The notes: generated from the sequence alone by a model not told the origin. A DNA stretch of 64,000 nt from Candidatus Tiddalikarchaeum anstoanum (GCA_902385255.1 CABMEV010000004.1:34590-98589); one strand, 5' to 3'. Positions 3,592 through 41,290 are shown, counted from the stretch's first letter. Translations and numbers: made by a program.

Positions 3592-3874
3592 TATTTTACT
3601 TTATCCTTTAAACCTTTAAATAATTTTCCAAATTACTTCACAAGCTAATAAAATGTTATATTTTTGGGAGTGAAATAATATATGGCTAAAAATCTATTTT
3701 TGTAGTATTTGGTAAGGTTTTAATAAAGAGTTAAATAAACCACACTTTTAAAATATAATATTTTTAATTGGTGTGAATGATAAAAATGACAATGTGACAT
3801 TAAATTTATAAATAAGAATAGGTTTAATAATTATATAGTTATTATCAAAATAACCTAATAAAAGGATAAGCAAG

Positions 3875-4672
3875 ATGAAAAATGAACGTAAAAATAGAAC
3901 AGGTATTCCGCAGGTTAGTCTTACGGAAGCAATTGGATATTTAACGAAAGTTTATACTATTATTGGAACAAATTTAAAATCATTTGCAGGTATGGCTGAA
4001 GTTATGGATATATCTATAGCAGGCGCGAAACGAGCATTTGGGGAACTTAAAATATATGGACTACTTGAGCAAGAAGGTACTGGGTGGAAAGTTTCTGATT
4101 TAGGTAAGCGTGTTGCAAATGGTGACAAAGCAGCAGTTATAACTACATTAGAAACAAATAGTATCTTAAAAGATTTATATGCAGAGCTAAAAGATAAGCA
4201 ATGTGATAGAGATTTTATAGAAGATTATATTAAAAAGAAAAGATTTGGATATAATCTAAACGTATCGCATGTTGCTAATAGATTCTTAGAAGCTTTAGAA
4301 TACATAAATAATCTCAAAGAAAGTGAAATTTCAACATCAGTCATAGAACATAAATATGATAATGACAAAGGAGACTTTCTAAAAGGAGTAAGATTAGGTT
4401 TTAAATTAGCTAAATTAATTCATGATAAGCCTGAGCATAAACAATTAATTAATGTACTTAATTCTTTAATGGAAGATGTAGAACATCAACCTGAAATTAA
4501 AAATGTATTAGTTCATATAAAGGAAAATATTACAGAAGGATATATGAAAGAGGAAAAAGAATTAGAATATTTAATCAAACAATTTGATAAATTAATACAC
4601 ATAGAAGAAAATGCCCAAGATAATGTTAAACAAAAATCTGAAGAAGATACGAATAATAATTCAGAGAAATAA
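3875..4672 (+). CDS. hypothetical protein (possible N-terminal winged-helix-like region)
   Basis: A long ORF in an AT-rich genome. Putative TATA-like elements (TTTATAAATA, AATTATATAG) lie upstream. No confident motif was found. Confidence 0.5.
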   Translation: MKNERKNRTGIPQVSLTEAIGYLTKVYTIIGTNLKSFAGMAEVMDISIAGAKRAFGELKIYGLLEQEGTGWKVSDLGKRVANGDKAAVITTLETNSILKDLYAELKDKQCDRDFIEDYIKKKRFGYNLNVSHVANRFLEALEYINNLKESEISTSVIEHKYDNDKGDFLKGVRLGFKLAKLIHDKPEHKQLINVLNSLMEDVEHQPEIKNVLVHIKENITEGYMKEEKELEYLIKQFDKLIHIEENAQDNVKQKSEEDTNNNSEK

Positions 4673-5914: not shown

Positions 5915-7144
5915 TTATGAGAACTTGCTGAGTTTTACTTTTTCTTCCTTGCCGGAGACAAGGTCCTTAACAGTTATTGTATCCTTCTCCAAATCCTTCT
6001 CACCGATTATGTAAACTTTATGAATACCTCTATTTTCTGCGTACTCAAACTGCTTGCTTAAATTCCTCTCAGACATGTTAATGTCGCAGGACACTCCTTT
6101 TTTTAAGAGAAAATTCCTAAGCTTCAACGCCTCAGTCATCACATTCCCAACGGTTGCGATGAAAACGGAATTATTCAAATAATCAGGCAATAATTTTTTA
6201 TCCTTCAAGACCTCGAATAATACGGCATCACCCTCGGCGAATCCGACAGCAGGAGTCTTCTCCCCTCCAAAATCACTGACAAGATTATTATACTCTCCCC
6301 CTCCGAAAATTGCCCTGAACTTCCCGCCCCTGTCATAAGCTTCGAAAACGATATCAGTATAATAATCCAAACCTCTCACAATACTCAAATCAACCTCTAA
6401 ATATTCAGGATTGCAAAGTTCTACGACTGTCTTTAATCGCGAGACATCAAAACCAAGGCTGTCCAACTCAACTATTAACTCTTTATCAGTAAGTGAGAAT
6501 AACCTCTTAGCCAAATCATACTCTTTGACAAGATTCCTTAAACCATCATCAAACTCTTTAGGAGTAATCTTCAACTTCTTATCAAGAAGGAGGTAAAAAG
6601 CAGACTTATCCTCAACCCCGAACCTTTTGACAAAAGAATCAATAAGAACGCGGCTGTTAACCCTAACCACTATATCATTGCTCTTTAATCCGAAAGACTC
6701 TAAAGTTGAGATTGCAAGATTCAATATTTCAACAGTGGCAAGCACACTAACCTCACCTATAATATCCGCATTATACTGGAAAAACTCCCTTAAGCGGCCT
6801 TTCTGAGGCCTCTCATAACGGAAACATCTTGGTATACTAAACCATTTCAAAGGCTTCTTCAAACCTTTGCCATACATTATGACAAAACGGGCAAGCTGCG
6901 GAGTAAGTTCAGGGCGAAGACAAACCTCTCTATCCCCCCTGTCCTTGAAATAGAACAACTGGCTTTTAATCTCCTCACCGCTCTTTCTGGTAAAAAGAGA
7001 AACCTCCTCAATAGTCGGAGCATCATACTCCTCAAAACCCATCATTTTACTGCTAGAACGCCACTTATTAGCTATGAACAACTCCTTATCCCAATCAGAA
7101 GGCAAAAAATCCCTAGTTCCAATGTAAGGCTGCAAATTAGTCAT
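5915..7144 (-). CDS. hisS: histidine--tRNA ligase
   Basis: Class II aaRS motif 2 (FSIPRCFRYERPQKGRLREFFQ) and the HisRS motif 3 (AIFGGGEYNNL) are present. The ORF track extends to 7207, but the first 21 codons look like AT-rich junk, so the start was placed at M22 (7144). Confidence 0.85.
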   Translation of the reverse strand: MTNLQPYIGTRDFLPSDWDKELFIANKWRSSSKMMGFEEYDAPTIEEVSLFTRKSGEEIKSQLFYFKDRGDREVCLRPELTPQLARFVIMYGKGLKKPLKWFSIPRCFRYERPQKGRLREFFQYNADIIGEVSVLATVEILNLAISTLESFGLKSNDIVVRVNSRVLIDSFVKRFGVEDKSAFYLLLDKKLKITPKEFDDGLRNLVKEYDLAKRLFSLTDKELIVELDSLGFDVSRLKTVVELCNPEYLEVDLSIVRGLDYYTDIVFEAYDRGGKFRAIFGGGEYNNLVSDFGGEKTPAVGFAEGDAVLFEVLKDKKLLPDYLNNSVFIATVGNVMTEALKLRNFLLKKGVSCDINMSERNLSKQFEYAENRGIHKVYIIGEKDLEKDTITVKDLVSGKEEKVKLSKFS

Positions 7145-7371
7145 TAAAAAAATATAAAACCCGTTTCTGATTATATATCTTTTGTAGAATATGATGTTTC
7201 TGGGCAATTATTCAGGTTTTTTAGTTCATAAAAAATATATTTATTTACAATATGGTAAATAAATATGTGTTGTTGAAAAACGCATCCAGCGGCTCTAATT
7301 TCTTAATATTTTGGGGCACGGTCAGATTTATATCTCTTTCATAACTCTAATCTTAGTATAGACTTAATGAG

Positions 7372-33718: not shown

Positions 33719-34366
33719 ATGGGTTTCTTAAAAAAGATATTAGGAATAGAGAACTTGGAAAAGAAAACAGAAGACGAGTTAGACCAGGTTAAGAAGAACA
33801 TGAAAACAAGCTGGAGCTGGGTTAATTACCTGCACGAGTTAGAACAGGATAACAGGTCCAGGATAAAGAAGCTCGAAGATGAAAATTCTGAACTAAAAGA
33901 ATTATTCAAAGCAGAGATTGAACGACTTTCAAACATCCAAGTCTCACAAAATACCGGCATTAAAGTGCAGGAAAAACACATCAAACTGAATGAAGACAAG
34001 GAGAAAAGCAAAACAGTTCCGGAACAAGAAGAGGAAGATGAAGATGACGAGAAAGAGGAACTATTAGACAAGAAAGGCCTCCCCCTCAAGGAATTGGATA
34101 TACAGGGGATTGGGAAGAAAGAAGCTTATCTCCTTCAAATATTATACCAGATGGCGTGCTTTGACGGTTCCTCAAGCCTCGAGACTGGCAAGATATTTGA
34201 ACACTTGCCTTATCAGATAACAGTTAGAGGGCTTAGGAAGAAACTATACAAACTGCAGCAGCAGGGCATAATTAAATCAGTAATGTATGGGAACACAAGG
34301 AAATGGTACCTTGATATGGAGAAACTTGCAAAACTCAAGCAGTTCCTCACTGAAAGGGCAGTATAA
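33719..34366 (+). CDS. acidic coiled-coil protein with a C-terminal winged-helix-like segment
   Basis: An E/K/D-rich central region is followed by a C-terminal GIIKSVMYGNTRKWYL wHTH-like pattern. Confidence 0.4.
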   Translation: MGFLKKILGIENLEKKTEDELDQVKKNMKTSWSWVNYLHELEQDNRSRIKKLEDENSELKELFKAEIERLSNIQVSQNTGIKVQEKHIKLNEDKEKSKTVPEQEEEDEDDEKEELLDKKGLPLKELDIQGIGKKEAYLLQILYQMACFDGSSSLETGKIFEHLPYQITVRGLRKKLYKLQQQGIIKSVMYGNTRKWYLDMEKLAKLKQFLTERAV

Positions 34367-37085: not shown

Positions 37086-37158
37086 GCATAATTTACATAA
37101 AGAGATTTTATTAATCTTATCCTAAAAAAGAGTTGAAAGTGTTGGGATTTTAAGCCAA

Positions 37159-38281
37159 CTCACTTTTGAAAAAAAACATTCATTTTTCTGGCTGAAACAC
37201 CATACCCCTCTCCTTCATCTTCACATTTTGAAAATGTGTTGGATGTGTTGGAGTAATTTTAGTCTTCGCCACCACATTTTGGGTAAAAACTCACTATTTT
37301 TTCGAAACCCTCACTTTTGAAAAAAAAGCCTGCTATAATAGTAGTTTTTCCTATAATCACTCACTTTGTTTAATATATGGGTAATATCCATCGGATTAGT
37401 CATACTATTTATCACAAGATCTGCATTACTCACTTTTATGCTTTTGAACACGTCTTCTATGGTTCCCTCACTTTTAGAAAAAAGCTGCCTATTATGTATG
37501 CCTAAAACCGAATAAAACATGTCTGTAATGGTAAAAAGCAGGAATCCAGCCCTAAGAGGCCACATTGAGCCGAATCTGTCGAAATTACTCTTACTTTTGA
37601 TTGTTTCATTATGCCCAAGGTAGTATTTCCATAAAGTATTATCCCCATCGCACACTACAATATCATAACACTCACTTTTGATAAAATTGGCCAATTCTTT
37701 CAAATTTCGGAGAGTAAAATCAGCACTTTTGTGAGTATTCCCGTATCTATTGACTAGAATCTTATCCACCCTCACTTTTGAATTATGGTGCTTGTTTTCG
37801 AGCGCTTTTTCAAGGTTATAGGCTAGTTTTAAGTCAAGAAAGTCATCACCTATAACACCTATGCGAACAGGCCCAGAATTTGATTTTAACGCATATTGGA
37901 AGGATTTAAACAATCCTCCATATTGGTAGAATAGTTCTATTAATGCAGCTGGGTTTGGCTTTAAACCGTGTCTAATCCAGTGATAAGCGCTCACAATGCC
38001 TATATTTATGCTGTTTGCCTGTAATTCCCTCTCACTTTGAACCTGGGGAGCTGATAAGATCATTAATTATCTGGTAAAAGTATTATAGATTTAAATCTTA
38101 CCTTAAACCCTCACTTTTGGGAAAACAGGCTGTTTTTATGCCTTTTTAGCCCTATTTTAGCCTTTTTTATCACTTTTTACTATTTTAGGATCTTGCAGGA
38201 CTTATATTCACTCAAGTTATAGATTGCCAATTGATATATAGTGATAATCTATCTATCACTCACTTTGGGATAAATAAGCTA
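37159..38281. repeat. Dispersed array of at least 12 copies of CTCACTTT(T)G; four exact copies of the 12-mer CCCTCACTTTTG are followed by A/G-rich runs
   Basis: Copies lie at about 37159, 37222 (variant), 37308, 37360, 37429, 37465, 37671, 37769, 38031, 38108 and 38259. Some extend to CTCACTTTTGRRAAAA(A)GCTG..TTATG units. An inverted copy CAAAGTGAGGG lies at 40144. Confidence 0.7.
37311..38063 (-). CDS. hypothetical ORF whose frame contains five of the CTCACTTTTG repeats (each encoding a KSE/QSE tripeptide); its coding status is doubtful
   Basis: A 250-aa ORF, which is long for an AT-rich genome. The same repeat continues into both flanking non-coding regions. Confidence 0.3.
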   Translation of the reverse strand: MILSAPQVQSERELQANSINIGIVSAYHWIRHGLKPNPAALIELFYQYGGLFKSFQYALKSNSGPVRIGVIGDDFLDLKLAYNLEKALENKHHNSKVRVDKILVNRYGNTHKSADFTLRNLKELANFIKSECYDIVVCDGDNTLWKYYLGHNETIKSKSNFDRFGSMWPLRAGFLLFTITDMFYSVLGIHNRQLFSKSEGTIEDVFKSIKVSNADLVINSMTNPMDITHILNKVSDYRKNYYYSRLFFQK

Positions 38282-38392
38282 TTTTTAGCTGCTTTTATGT
38301 ATTTTTTTGATTCTTCAATCAATATTTTAGGTTAATTTTTATCCTATCTACCTATATATCGAGTTAATCTAGAAAAAATTATAAATATTTGA

Positions 38393-38470
38393 CGTGTTGA
38401 CTAATGTGTTTAATATGTTGTCGAAAGTGTTGGATGTGTTGGACTTGTTGTTGAATGTGTTGTGGTGGTT
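38393..38470 (+). repeat. Iteron-like array of about 7 units of (A)TGTGTTGGA with roughly 9-12 bp period, just upstream of the 38501 gene
   Basis: The sequence reads gacgtgttgactaatgtgtttaatatgttgtcgaaagtgttggatgtgttggacttgttgttgaatgtgttgtggtgg. Related copies lie at 37234..37253 and 7265..7275. Confidence 0.6.
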
Positions 38471-38500
38471 CTAATGGGCATTTTAGATATAATTTACAAT

Positions 38501-39085
38501 ATGGTAAATAAATCCAAGCAAAAAAAGGCCAAAAAACCAAAACAAAAGCACGAAAAACATGCTGCCAATAATGGAAAAACAGGGCAGGTGCAGGAAACCA
38601 AGCAGAAATTGGAGCAAAAGATAATAGTCAAGGATTTGTCAGATACTGAAAAACTGCTGAAAGCGTGGGATTCAAGCGTCAAGAACGTTTCAGACCATCC
38701 ATTATCACAGGTTAAAATCATTAATACGCAGATATTGGAGCAGTTAACTGATATACTCACTTCTATGAACTCAAAATTAGACCGCCTGGATGTGTTAGAA
38801 GAGATTTTGAGGCTACTTAAGGATTCCAGGGCTGAAATCAGGGTTGTTGGTGGAAGTACTGAGAAATTGGATGCTGCTATCTCTAAAATTGAGGGTTTGA
38901 CTATCAAGGATGAAGAGTTTATCCGCGTCTTGAAGGATAAGGGGCCTCAAAGTGCTGATTCCATAAGCCGTTTGGTTGGCATTTCAAGGAGCACAGCTTC
39001 AAGCAGATTGAATAAATTGGAGAAGTTTAAGCTTGTTAAGAAGAATGCTGACGGCAAAGATATTTATTATTCATTGAACCAATAA
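38501..39085 (+). CDS. basic N-tail protein with a C-terminal winged-helix DNA-binding domain (regulator or Rep-like)
   Basis: The C-terminus reads SISRLVGISRSTASSRLNKLEKFKLVKK..DIYYSL (HTH plus wing). The start was placed at the MVNK ATG embedded in the 22-bp box with a TATA-like TTTAGATATAA just upstream; the ORF track starts at 38462. Confidence 0.5.
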   Translation: MVNKSKQKKAKKPKQKHEKHAANNGKTGQVQETKQKLEQKIIVKDLSDTEKLLKAWDSSVKNVSDHPLSQVKIINTQILEQLTDILTSMNSKLDRLDVLEEILRLLKDSRAEIRVVGGSTEKLDAAISKIEGLTIKDEEFIRVLKDKGPQSADSISRLVGISRSTASSRLNKLEKFKLVKKNADGKDIYYSLNQ

Positions 39086-39622
39086 AAAATATTATCAAAG
39101 GTTTTAATAATTTATCAAAAGTTTTATCGTGCTGTTTTTTCAGTATTTTTTATCGTTTTTTTGATTTTTTTCTAATTTTCTATATTCCATCTCGTTTACA
39201 AAATTTGGATTGACTTTTTTTAGTTCGGTAAGATGATAGTTTCTTTCTTTTTCCATGTCGTCTTTTATATTTCTTAATATGTCTGATAAGCTGATTAGTC
39301 CGTTTCTTACGAAATCATTTTTCATTACTATTATGGATTTCATTACTTCTTTATAGGTTTTTAGCGCCTTTTTTAGCTGCCTAAATAGGGCTCGGAATAT
39401 ACCCTCCAGGCGAAAGTTTTAGGCCTAAAATGCGTTAAAATGACCCCGTTGTTTCCTATGGATATATCGGCTTTCTATACATAGAATTTGGCCGGATTTC
39501 ATTATGTCTTCCTCCAGTAATCTGTATGACAAGCTCCCTATATCTTTTATAGAATAGTAGTTAGGGAACCACTTTCGTAAACCTTATATGTCGCTCTCCA
39601 CTTATAGAAAACTGGTATATTT

Positions 39623-39970
39623 ATGAAAAACGTGATGTTTTTGGTATTCGGAAACCACCCCAAAGCTAACAGCATAAAAGAGCGTGCTCTGGTGATTATT
39701 AAGTTCCTGAAAGGCAAGGACTGGGTGGACTTAAACGACATACAAAAAGAGCTTAACATAGACAGGAACGAAAGCCCCAGCATGTTCTATAAACCTCTTA
39801 GTGCGATGAAGCGCTGGAAGCTGCTTGACAGTAAGCGCCAGGTTACAGGCGGCCGAGGAGTGCACGTTATCTACACGACTTATTACAAGTTTACCCCAGA
39901 CCATTTTCTTACATATTTGAAAGACACTTTGTACGCAGTGTGCGATACAGAGCTTAAAATGTTCAAATAA
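39623..39970 (+). CDS. small winged-helix (MarR/PadR-like) DNA-binding protein
   Basis: The stretch LVIIKFLKGKDWVDLNDIQKELNIDRNESPSMFYKPLSAMKRWKLLDSKRQVTGGRGVHVIY reads as helix-turn-helix plus a beta-wing. Confidence 0.5.
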   Translation: MKNVMFLVFGNHPKANSIKERALVIIKFLKGKDWVDLNDIQKELNIDRNESPSMFYKPLSAMKRWKLLDSKRQVTGGRGVHVIYTTYYKFTPDHFLTYLKDTLYAVCDTELKMFK

Positions 39971-40978
39971 TTTAATATTAATTTACCATATTGTAATTAT
40001 GTGGGTGCCCATATAGTCAAAAAACATTGCATACTTTTTAATACATTATTACCATATAGTAAATAAATTGAGATTACACCTCGAAAAATTCCACTATCTG
40101 CCGAAAACTAAAAACTGAGTGAGACATCAAATTTAAGAGAATGCAAAGTGAGGGATAATTATAAATTTTATTAATGTGATTTATAATATTTATTAATTAA
40201 TAATTATGTAATATAATATGGTCTTTTATAATAACAAAGAAATAATAACTAATGAACATGATCTTGCATATTTAAAATATTTTGATTGGTTTTTATCACT
40301 TAGCTCAGATAAGTTAAAGAATTTAAATGTTTTATTTAAAAAATCGTAAAATTGATTTGTATATAAAAGCAAATAAAATTATAAAAAGTCCAGACCTTAT
40401 TTCAAAATCTCAGATACAAGATATTAAATCCAAACGAATTACAAATAAAAAAAGATGAAGTAAATATAATTTTAATGGGCGGAGAATCTAATATTGATTC
40501 ATTAGATGATATGTCAGATTTTTAGATCATGGGGTTGTCATAAGAGAGCCTGCGACGAATTAATAAACTGGTTTTATGAAGAATCCAATCTTAAAAAAAT
40601 GACCATTATAGTCCCTTTTGACACTATTTTCAGTACGTATAATGCTAATTTGAATACTCCAAAATATAAAGAATATTTCTTAAACGTATATAATTCTAAA
40701 AAAACTTCATTCAAAATAAATCAAGACCAAGCAATAACTGTTTTGTCTAAAATAGTTATTTAAAATTTTTCAAAGATAACAAGTCCCAAAAAAAATAAAT
40801 TAATCAAACAATAATATTTTAAGCAATTAATACTAAACTAAGTTTCAGGAACTCTAGATTTAATACTTATTTTGTTAGGTATAACTTATATTTTGGCTAA
40901 AATTTCAATTAAAAGCCTTTTTAACAGACGCATGCCTTGTTAAAAATAATAATATTAATAATAGGGGGTGCAAAAAGA

Positions 40979-41146
40979 ATGCTAGTTGTAAGAAAAGCAG
41001 CAAAAGAAGCTGGAAAGAAGTACGAAATGAGATTCCCAGACGAGACTATTGATGCTCTTGACAAGTATTTAGATGAAAAAATAAAGAAAGCCGCAGACAG
41101 AGCTAAAAAGAACGGAAGAAGTACTTTAAGAGAATATGACTTCTAA
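40979..41146 (+). CDS. small histone-fold protein (archaeal-histone-like, alpha3-truncated)
   Basis: The 55-aa sequence aligns by eye to HMfB alpha1-L1-alpha2-L2 (RKAAKEAG..FPDETIDALDKYLDEKIKKAADRAKKNGRSTLREYDF against RIIKDAGAE..VSDDARITLAKILEEMGRDIASEAIKLARHAGRKTIKAEDIE). A Shine-Dalgarno-like AGGGGGTG lies 8 nt upstream of this ATG, whereas the ORF-track start at 40937 lacks one. Confidence 0.4.
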   Translation: MLVVRKAAKEAGKKYEMRFPDETIDALDKYLDEKIKKAADRAKKNGRSTLREYDF

Positions 41147-41290
41147 AAGCTAAAAAAAATCATTTTTCAAACTTTTTTTTTAATGTTTCTAATTTTTATG
41201 ATTTAAGGCAAAAGATAAACGCCTATAAAAAAAAGTACTTCTAAAAAATACTTAAAATAACAACACGCATCTCCTAAAGACTATACAAAA

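Follow-up and report, generated by a model that had tools for sequence, protein, structure and literature searches.

What purpose is served by a run of short direct repeats that stands immediately in front of a gene for a winged helix-turn-helix (wHTH) protein in an archaeal chromosome? The question is raised by a 64,000-nucleotide stretch of DNA from Candidatus Tiddalikarchaeum anstoanum (DPANN, Nanoarchaeia), hereafter called the window, for which a first-pass annotation had noted such repeats and had proposed two explanations: iterons bound by the Rep initiator of a plasmid or virus, or an autoregulated operator. Our comparative data favour the second of these. On balance, we consider it probable that the array is a conserved set of binding sites for the protein encoded directly downstream, which would use them for feedback control of its own gene. 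The array and the features that immediately concern it are:

37139-37146, + strand: single repeat unit, GTGTTGGG, seen in the sequence
37234-37252, + strand: distal unit pair, ATGTGTTGG ATGTGTTGG (2.1 copies), from Tandem Repeats Finder, at the far end of a cluster of TCACTTT motifs
38372-38389, + strand: putative transcription factor B recognition element (BRE) and TATA box, GAAAAAATTATAAATATT, read from the sequence, directly 5′ of the array
38394-38462, + strand: proximal array of seven to eight direct units with a TGT(T/C)G core, from the sequence, Tandem Repeats Finder and shuffles, and kept in 25 related loci
38465-38469, + strand: Shine-Dalgarno-like GGTGG, read from the sequence and fused to the last repeat unit; GGGGTG or GGTG precedes the ATG in the closest clade of relatives (L001-L005)
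38474-39085, + strand: wHTH gene for a protein of 203 amino acids (the 38474 protein), starting MGILDIIYNMVNKS..., from the alignment of homologues
Domains of the 38474 protein: amphipathic helix, residues 3-15; disordered linker, 16-55; helices, 58-72, 77-125 and 130-140; wHTH domain, 144-201

The repeats were found where the first-pass annotation had placed them, between the TATA-like box and the start codon. Units begin at 38394 (GTGTTGAC), 38406 (GTGTTTAA), 38416 (aTGTTGTC(GAA)), 38427 (GTGTTGGA), 38436 (GTGTTGGA), 38446 (tTGTTGTTGAA) and 38457 (GTGTTGTG), with spacings of 12, 9, 12, 9, 9, (3) and 9 bp, and Tandem Repeats Finder returns periods of 9, 12, 21 and 30 across 38394-38463. The smooth period of about 10 bp that had been described is therefore replaced by an alternation of 9 and 12 bp with a 21-bp super-period. 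Chance levels were taken from 300 dinucleotide-preserving shuffles of the window, and the array exceeds all of them: TGTTG occurs seven times in 75 bp on the + strand, whereas the shuffle maxima have a mean of 2.6 and a largest value of 5. The hexamer GTGTTG is present 38 times in the window compared to 19.5 expected, and there is one array in the 64 kb. Given the position of the TATA box, transcription would start near 38408, which is inside the array.

Two further occurrences of the repeat word had been reported. The pair at 37234-37252 is a real second site, and equivalent pairs are located at -1384 to -1726 in L002-L004, where two or three small groups of units are interleaved upstream with TCACTTT sites. 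The other occurrence, ATGTGTTGTTG at 7265, is present but as a single copy that is not distinguishable from chance.

The gene begins at the ATG at 38474, preceded by the GGTGG sequence, rather than at 38501 as first proposed, because the GenBank protein P0001 (203 amino acids, Candidatus Tiddalikarchaeum anstoanum), to which the translation is 100% identical, and all homologues begin at this methionine with the sequence MG(I/F)LD. Family scans together with structure and sequence comparisons assign the C-terminal domain to the ArsR/MarR/TrmB-type winged-helix fold. The C-terminal winged helix of the first-pass annotation thus stands, but its basic N-terminal tail does not, as the net charge of the linker is basic or acidic depending on the clade, and its length also varies freely. 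The invariant residues of the family gather in two places, HPLSQ (75-79) and the recognition helix SRSTAS-RLN (171-180), the latter reading SRSTASSRLN in the window. The helix has the form SRSTAS(S/F)RLN and stays invariant, or almost so, as identity in the remaining protein drops to 33-40%. In most members, an amphipathic helix is formed by the first 11 residues, with hydrophobic moments of 0.32-0.71 (0.5-0.7 in most), and the region N-terminal to the wHTH domain is helical with no family match. The family is small, with 63 proteins at E ≤ 1e-10 in a profile search of 1.84 billion representatives; beyond these, the wHTH domain alone matches. An ESCRT-III/CdvB-like protein had been considered on account of the MG(L/F)(L/F)D N-terminus and a match to CHMP1B at E ~0.1, and was dropped because the structural model lacks a helical hairpin and the CHMP1B match is not significant.

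Comparative analysis was carried out on 22 loci from a scan of one genome per GTDB species and on three metagenome loci, giving 25 relatives in total. The homologues share 36-65% identity in the 22 GTDB loci, whose records are labelled Woesearchaeota, Parvarchaeota, Nanoarchaeota or Nanoarchaeia, and 36-83% in all 25 relatives. In every one of the 25, an array of 5-26 TGT(T/C)G units lies directly upstream of the wHTH homologue and on the strand of the gene, and none of these relatives keeps the gene without the repeats. The first-pass annotation had named such a loss as a ground for refutation, so the outcome speaks in its favour. Within 420 bp upstream there are 271 copies of the unit in 23 loci, compared to approximately 0.7 per locus expected from flanking DNA. 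A scan of metagenomes for the DNA pattern gave three true arrays among the matches listed, each preceding a wHTH homologue, with most of the others being unrelated coding microsatellites.

The family consensus unit is aATG-TGT(T/C)G-(G/A)A, and its core is invariant. Spacings across the 23 loci are predominantly 9 bp (125 cases) and 12 bp (50), followed by 7 bp (11) and 21 bp (8); the alternation of 9 and 12 bp creates the 21-bp super-period, which corresponds to two helical turns, and frame-breaking spacings of 7, 11, 13, 20, 22 and 23 bp are also present. Some loci have their units split into two blocks. Inverted copies of the unit are rare in the 23 loci. Where they do occur, they can cap the array to create a palindrome such as CCAACATGTGTTGG (L003 and L004) or TGTTGGAACAGTTCCAACA, an arrangement present at 5978-5992 in L002, at the equivalent positions in L003 and L004, and in L011, L012, L014, L015 and L019. 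The window array is without such a cap, which recalls the inverted-repeat operator that caps iteron arrays. As a separate observation, two metagenome contigs with 28-30% G+C (L086 at ~3874-4000 and L185 at ~3830-3950) carry GTGTTGGATGTGTTGGAATATG repeats with the same 9+12 spacing. These adjoin a (GTCT)n microsatellite and have no detectable wHTH homologue nearby.

The position of the array relative to the promoter differs between clades, although it overlaps or abuts a TATA-like box in 26 of 26 loci. In the window and L001-L005, a BRE/TATA-like sequence (AAAAAnnTATAAAT) is directly 5′ of the array, which is then promoter-proximal in these genomes and probably forms a transcribed leader. The array is instead upstream of the TATA-like box in L008, L009, L012, L013, L015, L016, L018, L019 and L021, and occupies both sides of it in L006, L011, L022 and L126.

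A further feature connects the repeats with the protein. Position 7 is the sole variable residue of the recognition helix, and it tracks the type of unit, GGA or GAA. Specifically, loci with serine or threonine at this position have 78 TGTYGG and 18 TGTYGAA units, whereas loci with phenylalanine or leucine have 50 and 91, respectively. This covariation is what direct base readout would predict, and we regard it as supportive rather than conclusive.

Because the array precedes a homologue in all 25 DPANN relatives, we interpret it as the chromosomal docking site of the protein itself and not as the replication origin of a plasmid or virus. Binding of the protein to its array is what we infer from the constant placement and the covariation. 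In the mechanism we propose, each 9-bp unit (TGTGTTGGA, with variants TGTGTCGAA and TGTGTTGAC) would be read by one C-terminal winged helix. Since the units share a single orientation and lie 9 or 12 bp apart (21 bp per pair), proteins would be expected to load head-to-tail and cooperatively, with neighbours held together probably through the long central helix. The filament that might result could coat 70-250 bp, including the TATA box and transcription start of its own gene, and would thereby feed back on transcription. For the window and the closest clade, where the TATA box is 5′ of the array, this suggests repression through blocked RNA polymerase recruitment or promoter escape. The unit groups at 37139 and 37234-37252 would probably permit the protein to act on, or loop to, the divergent side carrying the MBL-fold and ORF250 genes. 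Both the variable placement of the TATA box among clades and the unstructured leader, whose predicted RNA fold is not significant (z = -1.0), argue for an array that acts at the level of DNA rather than RNA.

The repeats and their gene are accompanied by two other motifs, one of which is partly located within an adjacent open reading frame (ORF):

37159-38266, + strand: oriented TCACTTT cluster of 11 copies, 10 of which are CTCACTTT, from counts, shuffles and relatives
37311-38063, - strand: ORF250 (C7), a conserved gene of 250 codons without family match, with seven TCACTTT copies on its antisense strand
38492-38513, + strand: near-palindromic box, ATTTACAATATGGTAAATAAAT, in codons 7-13 of the wHTH gene
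39977-39998 and 40049-40062, unstranded: two further copies of the box, downstream of a small wHTH gene (ORF115, 39623-39970)
40145-40152, - strand: single inverted CTCACTTT copy, which closes the unit and is followed by ~350 bp at 18-23% G+C

The first motif has the family consensus tAAC(T/C)CTCACTTTt (TAACYCTCACTTTT motifs). At every locus (L001-L022 and the window) there are between one and 11 oriented TCACTTT-type copies located 170-1600 bp upstream of the wHTH gene and on the same strand. In the 300 shuffles, no 1.2-kb segment has more than four copies, compared to 11 in the window cluster, and the motif is depleted in the remaining window, with eight copies versus approximately 15 expected. 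The seven copies inside ORF250 fall in three different frames; one position is common to all six orthologues while the others turn over, and this combination indicates a constraint on the DNA rather than on the protein. An inverted copy is also found at +983 to +1378 in L001-L004; taken together, the window and these four loci have it 1.0-1.7 kb past the gene start.

The palindromic box, which is the 22-bp box of the first-pass annotation, has the consensus ATTTAC(A/C)ATAT(G/T)GTAAAT and four sites in the window, at 7243-7264, 38492-38513, 39977-39998 and 40049-40062. The copy within the wHTH gene is confined to the closest clade, where it is found at +17 to +40 of the gene in L001-L005. The codons that carry it have identical synonymous sites in the window and these five loci, including TAC and GTA in A+T-rich genomes, and in L005 an Asn-to-His change creates a perfect palindrome. 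Paired box copies followed by an inverted TCACTTT copy occur 1.1-1.35 kb downstream in L001, L002 and L004, and another clade has a related palindrome (TTTCAATATTGAAA) after its last TCACTTT copy. The box is probably the operator of another, dimeric regulator, for which the product of ORF115 is one candidate.

The genomic setting is that of ordinary chromosomal DNA with 36% G+C. The neighbouring genes in the window encode a D-aminoacyl-tRNA deacylase, an MBL-fold protein of the PRK04286 family, tRNA synthetases, deoxyhypusine synthase and a putative hypoxanthine phosphoribosyltransferase, the last named by eye from its translation. The upstream gene order, which is kept across the family, consists of a T2SSE-type ATPase, C8, orf215, C4, the D-aminoacyl-tRNA deacylase, orf168, the MBL-fold protein and ORF250, and the wHTH gene and its array have the same housekeeping genes beside them in different orders of Nanoarchaeia. 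The wHTH gene is the only gene that adjoins the array in all loci, and no other neighbour is present in every one. No known RNA families or tRNAs were found near the locus.

Several of these neighbours have features of their own. ORF250 has no match in Pfam, NCBIfam or PHROG and is found only in the closest clade (L001-L005); a DxDxT-like motif in its sequence (CDGDNTLW) is a hint of a HAD-type phosphatase. The orf215 gene (33719-34366, + strand) is approximately 4 kb upstream of the wHTH gene and is kept in 13 of 22 loci. Its product combines an amphipathic helix at the N-terminus (MGFLKKILG) with a coiled coil, an acidic linker and, at the C-terminus, a wHTH domain. When this domain is compared with PDB sequences, the centromere-binding protein TubR scores best (4asn_A, E = 0.01, a weak match that is nearly full length). 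The possibility that orf215 is a paralogue of the gene for the 38474 protein is unsupported, with no significant similarity between the two proteins. The most constant neighbour, orf168 (C1), has no match in PDB or Pfam and looks unrelated to DNA.

Synteny is kept up to the wHTH gene and is broken directly after it. The variable downstream side spans 39086-41290 in the window, 7406-10390 in L003, 9800-11587 in L004, 9451-11538 in L017 and 4899-5960 in L007. In the window it consists of 2.2 kb of A+T-rich, gene-poor DNA; in relatives, genes of defence type are found there (STAND NTPase, ResIII helicase, GmrSD+Schlafen), and L007 has an Orc1/Cdc6-like gene. The region downstream of the wHTH gene looks like an insertion hot spot.

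A number of observations weigh against our preferred explanation of the array. Dimers of ArsR/MarR type normally read palindromes, and the sites here are 5-26 direct repeats rather than the one or two palindromic operators of the ArsR/SmtB or MarR type. As many as 26 units, in two arrays, far exceed what feedback control needs, so autoregulation may be a by-product of another role. The covariation between helix and unit goes back to two or three phylogenetic events rather than to a large series of independent ones. The neighbourhood contains genes for several other small wHTH proteins (orf215, ORF115 and, in other clades, a Zn-ribbon-wHTH protein), each of which is a possible binder. Finally, the array is never found without the oriented TCACTTT cluster, which autoregulation leaves unexplained.

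Among the alternatives, the one that survives best is a chromosome-organising site, either centromere-like or serving as a membrane tether, which we consider possible though unlikely. In this case, the array and the TCACTTT cluster would be a unique cis-acting locus, which the protein would coat and attach to the membrane or to a partner by its N-terminal helix. As with the partition operons of plasmids, autoregulation would come as a side effect. This explanation overlaps with the one we prefer. Contiguous arrays of 5-26 units, sometimes in two blocks, fit tubC and stbS better than they fit an ordinary operator (PMC6009700; bioRxiv 10.1101/2022.04.29.490116).

In the TubR/tubC system, which serves type III plasmid and prophage partition, blocks of direct repeats are always located upstream of tubR, and the complex both represses the promoter and serves segregation (PMC6009700). 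The window likewise has a small ArsR-like winged-helix protein with short direct repeats upstream of its own gene and over the promoter, and binding that is cooperative, as that of TubR is when it spreads, is also what we propose for the 38474 protein. The words TTGAC and (A/T)TGAA of c-st tubC also resemble the TGTTGAC and TGTTGAA units found here, which may be a coincidence. Unlike TubR/tubC, however, this locus is chromosomal, archaeal and syntenic, and has no adjacent gene for TubZ or another nucleoside triphosphatase (NTPase). The 38474 protein also differs from TubR in its extra N-terminal amphipathic helix and long helical domain and has no specific similarity to it, and the 9/12-bp spacing is distinct.

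A second comparison is provided by StbA and stbS of plasmid R388, in which 9-bp direct repeats, arranged as two sets of five, are located in the autoregulated stbA promoter (bioRxiv 10.1101/2022.04.29.490116). One StbA dimer is proposed to bind two consecutive repeats, and segregation proceeds without a dedicated NTPase (bioRxiv 10.1101/2022.04.29.490116). The 9-bp direct repeats in the promoter of the protein's own gene are common to both systems, and the small groups of two or three repeats that StbA has at other promoters are reminiscent of the distal pairs at 37234 and in L002-L004. In contrast to the 38474 protein, StbA has an N-terminal helix-turn-helix of a different fold class and is plasmid-borne, with a regular 11-bp repeat spacing, and no homology between the two was detected. 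Similarly, the omega repressor of the plasmid pSM19035, a ribbon-helix-helix protein with a ParA partner, uses seven to ten contiguous repeats of a 7-bp unit as both operator and centromere. The array resembles these heptads as a contiguous series of short repeats, mostly direct with some inverted, upstream of the protein's own gene, but differs in its winged-helix gene, its 9/12-bp spacing and its chromosomal location.

The N-terminal helix brings membrane tethering into consideration, as its 11 amphipathic residues are conserved and are followed by a linker that is free in charge and length. The Noc protein of Bacillus subtilis is known to bridge DNA to the membrane. By the same principle, RicO of Staphylococcus aureus uses a DNA-binding domain and an amphipathic helix to bridge the chromosomal locus ricS to the membrane, which demonstrates that a bacterial device of this design exists (bioRxiv 10.64898/2026.03.06.710092). 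A tether formed by the 38474 protein would share with RicO and Noc the pairing of a sequence-specific domain with an amphipathic helix. However, the helix of RicO is C-terminal, the folds are unrelated, and the RicO and Noc sites are dispersed near the origin rather than gathered in one tandem array. The single array in the window and the depletion of TCACTTT outside its cluster are also in keeping with an organising site, where uniqueness is judged within 64 kb of the genome, as is the weak match of the neighbouring orf215 product to TubR.

Opposed to this, no gene for an NTPase or cytomotive partner adjoins the wHTH gene in any locus; specifically, ParA, ParM and TubZ are absent from this position in the window and the 22 loci, and the nearest ATPase is the T2SSE-type protein 5 kb upstream. 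The idea that the helix binds membranes is a guess based on its physico-chemistry. In fold and sequence searches, the 38474 protein resembled TubR, AspA, ParR and StbA only through the generic wHTH: AspA ranks 49th in Foldseek, its sequence match has E = 0.27, and TubR is missing from the matches listed. A more elaborate version, which we find doubtful, would make the 1.3-3 kb unit a single chromosome-organising centre in Nanoarchaeia, with the wHTH protein polymerizing on the array and pinning the locus to the membrane. This unit would comprise the TAACYCTCACTTTT motifs in their common orientation, the GTGTTGGA array with the wHTH gene behind it, and the palindromic boxes together with the inverted TCACTTT copy. 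In very small cells, these parts might serve segregation or positioning in a minimal way that needs no NTPase, with a second factor reading TCACTTT. A centromere-like or tethering role in general we would rate somewhere between unlikely and doubtful.

It is improbable that a different factor binds the array, or that it is read as RNA, for instance as an RNA-binding site in the 5′ leader, or as a leader peptide or upstream ORF, with the downstream protein being only the regulated target. The reading frame through the window array is open, since 9 and 12 are multiples of three, and encodes VLTNVFNMLSKVLDVLDLLLNVLWWF* with a stop that overlaps the start codon as TAATG; the same frame in L001 ends in TGA directly before the ATG. 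This open frame is probably a by-product of the spacing and of a unit that is free of stops, and the frame-breaking spacings noted above argue against a coding role, although a leader peptide might occur in the closest clade. The closest clade probably transcribes the array as a leader, but in most clades the array is upstream of the TATA-like box and hence would not be transcribed with the gene, and the leader has no significant fold. Several other wHTH genes nearby could supply a different binder, but none of these neighbours is present in all loci, as the downstream wHTH gene is, and the covariation points to the protein encoded by that gene.

We consider it distinctly improbable that the locus is a chromosomal replication origin, in which the TCACTTT motifs would act as origin recognition boxes (ORBs) peculiar to the lineage, converging around the gene, and the gene product would be an accessory or alternative initiator with the GTGTTG repeats as its iterons. 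The oriented repeats on one side, the inverted copy on the other (40145-40152, and +983 to +1378 in L001-L004) and the stretch of 18-23% G+C that follows fit this arrangement, as does the synteny break immediately downstream. Like the TCACTTT cluster, ORB and mini-ORB clusters comprise many oriented, non-palindromic sites, some in a coding region and one inverted on the opposite side, and initiator-site clusters within a coding region are precedented by the dp1 gene of Pyrococcus (PMC1904270). An Orc1/Cdc6-like gene is also found 1 kb downstream in L007, which is one of 22 relatives.

However, no Orc1/Cdc6 gene was found among the large ORFs scanned in the window, and TCACTTT lacks the ORB core (TTCC...GAA, PMC1904270): TTCCANTGGAA with one mismatch has two matches compared to 3.2 expected, none of which are in the region. 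The DPANN Orc1 family is located elsewhere, adjoining GINS51/NucS or SerRS, with zero or one TCACTTT nearby, and the orc1-linked regions of relatives are without clusters of the motif. Cumulative GC skew across the window has no turning point at 38 kb, with a local sign change that follows the gene strand, and gene orientation has no clear switch there. In addition, family scans found neither an AAA+ nor a Rep domain in the 38474 protein. As an observation on a different genome, the Woesearchaeota contig L194 carries AAGCACTGGACA repeats (TCCAGTG-like) at 7144-7191, directly downstream of an Orc1/Cdc6-family gene and in a 1.3-kb gene-poor stretch; these repeats are a candidate for the real orc1-linked origin of that genome.

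The proposal of plasmid or viral iterons has fared worst. Iteron/RepA origins such as those of pPS10, pSC101, P1 and F have two-turn-phased direct repeats beside the gene for a winged-helix protein, and the RepA operator is inverted. The helix-phased tandem direct repeats beside a wHTH gene, with an inverted cap near the promoter in several loci, do correspond to this architecture, but membership of a Rep family and residence on a plasmid or virus do not hold: the protein has a single wHTH domain rather than WH1 and WH2, with no Rep_3 or RepA match. Despite the two-turn super-period and an A+T-rich, gene-poor downstream region of variable content, iterons with the Rep of an integrated plasmid or virus are very improbable, because the locus is chromosomal and keeps its housekeeping synteny, Pfam, NCBIfam and PHROGs gave no Rep, plasmid or phage family match beyond generic wHTH, no family relative is present in IMG/VR viral contigs, PLSDB plasmids or GenBank phages, and a double-unit 17-mer yields only isolated chance matches in viral contigs.

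The ordinary part of the finding is most likely an autoregulatory operator. What is unusual is how large the array is and that it consists of direct repeats, its conservation, motif included, across the DPANN lineages sampled, the amphipathic N-terminus of the protein and the constant presence of a second motif cluster. DPANN archaea are mostly uncultured, and to our knowledge next to nothing has been established about how they regulate genes or organise and segregate their chromosomes. The locus offers a concrete candidate for a protein-DNA pair, consisting of a 9-bp unit, an invariant or nearly invariant recognition helix and natural covariation between them, where the association of serine or threonine with GGA and of phenylalanine or leucine with GAA predicts which residue reads which base. 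The TCACTTT cluster represents a second conserved cis-element that is partly written into coding sequence. Should the array have a role beyond that of an operator, this lineage would gain its first candidate centromere-like or tethering site.

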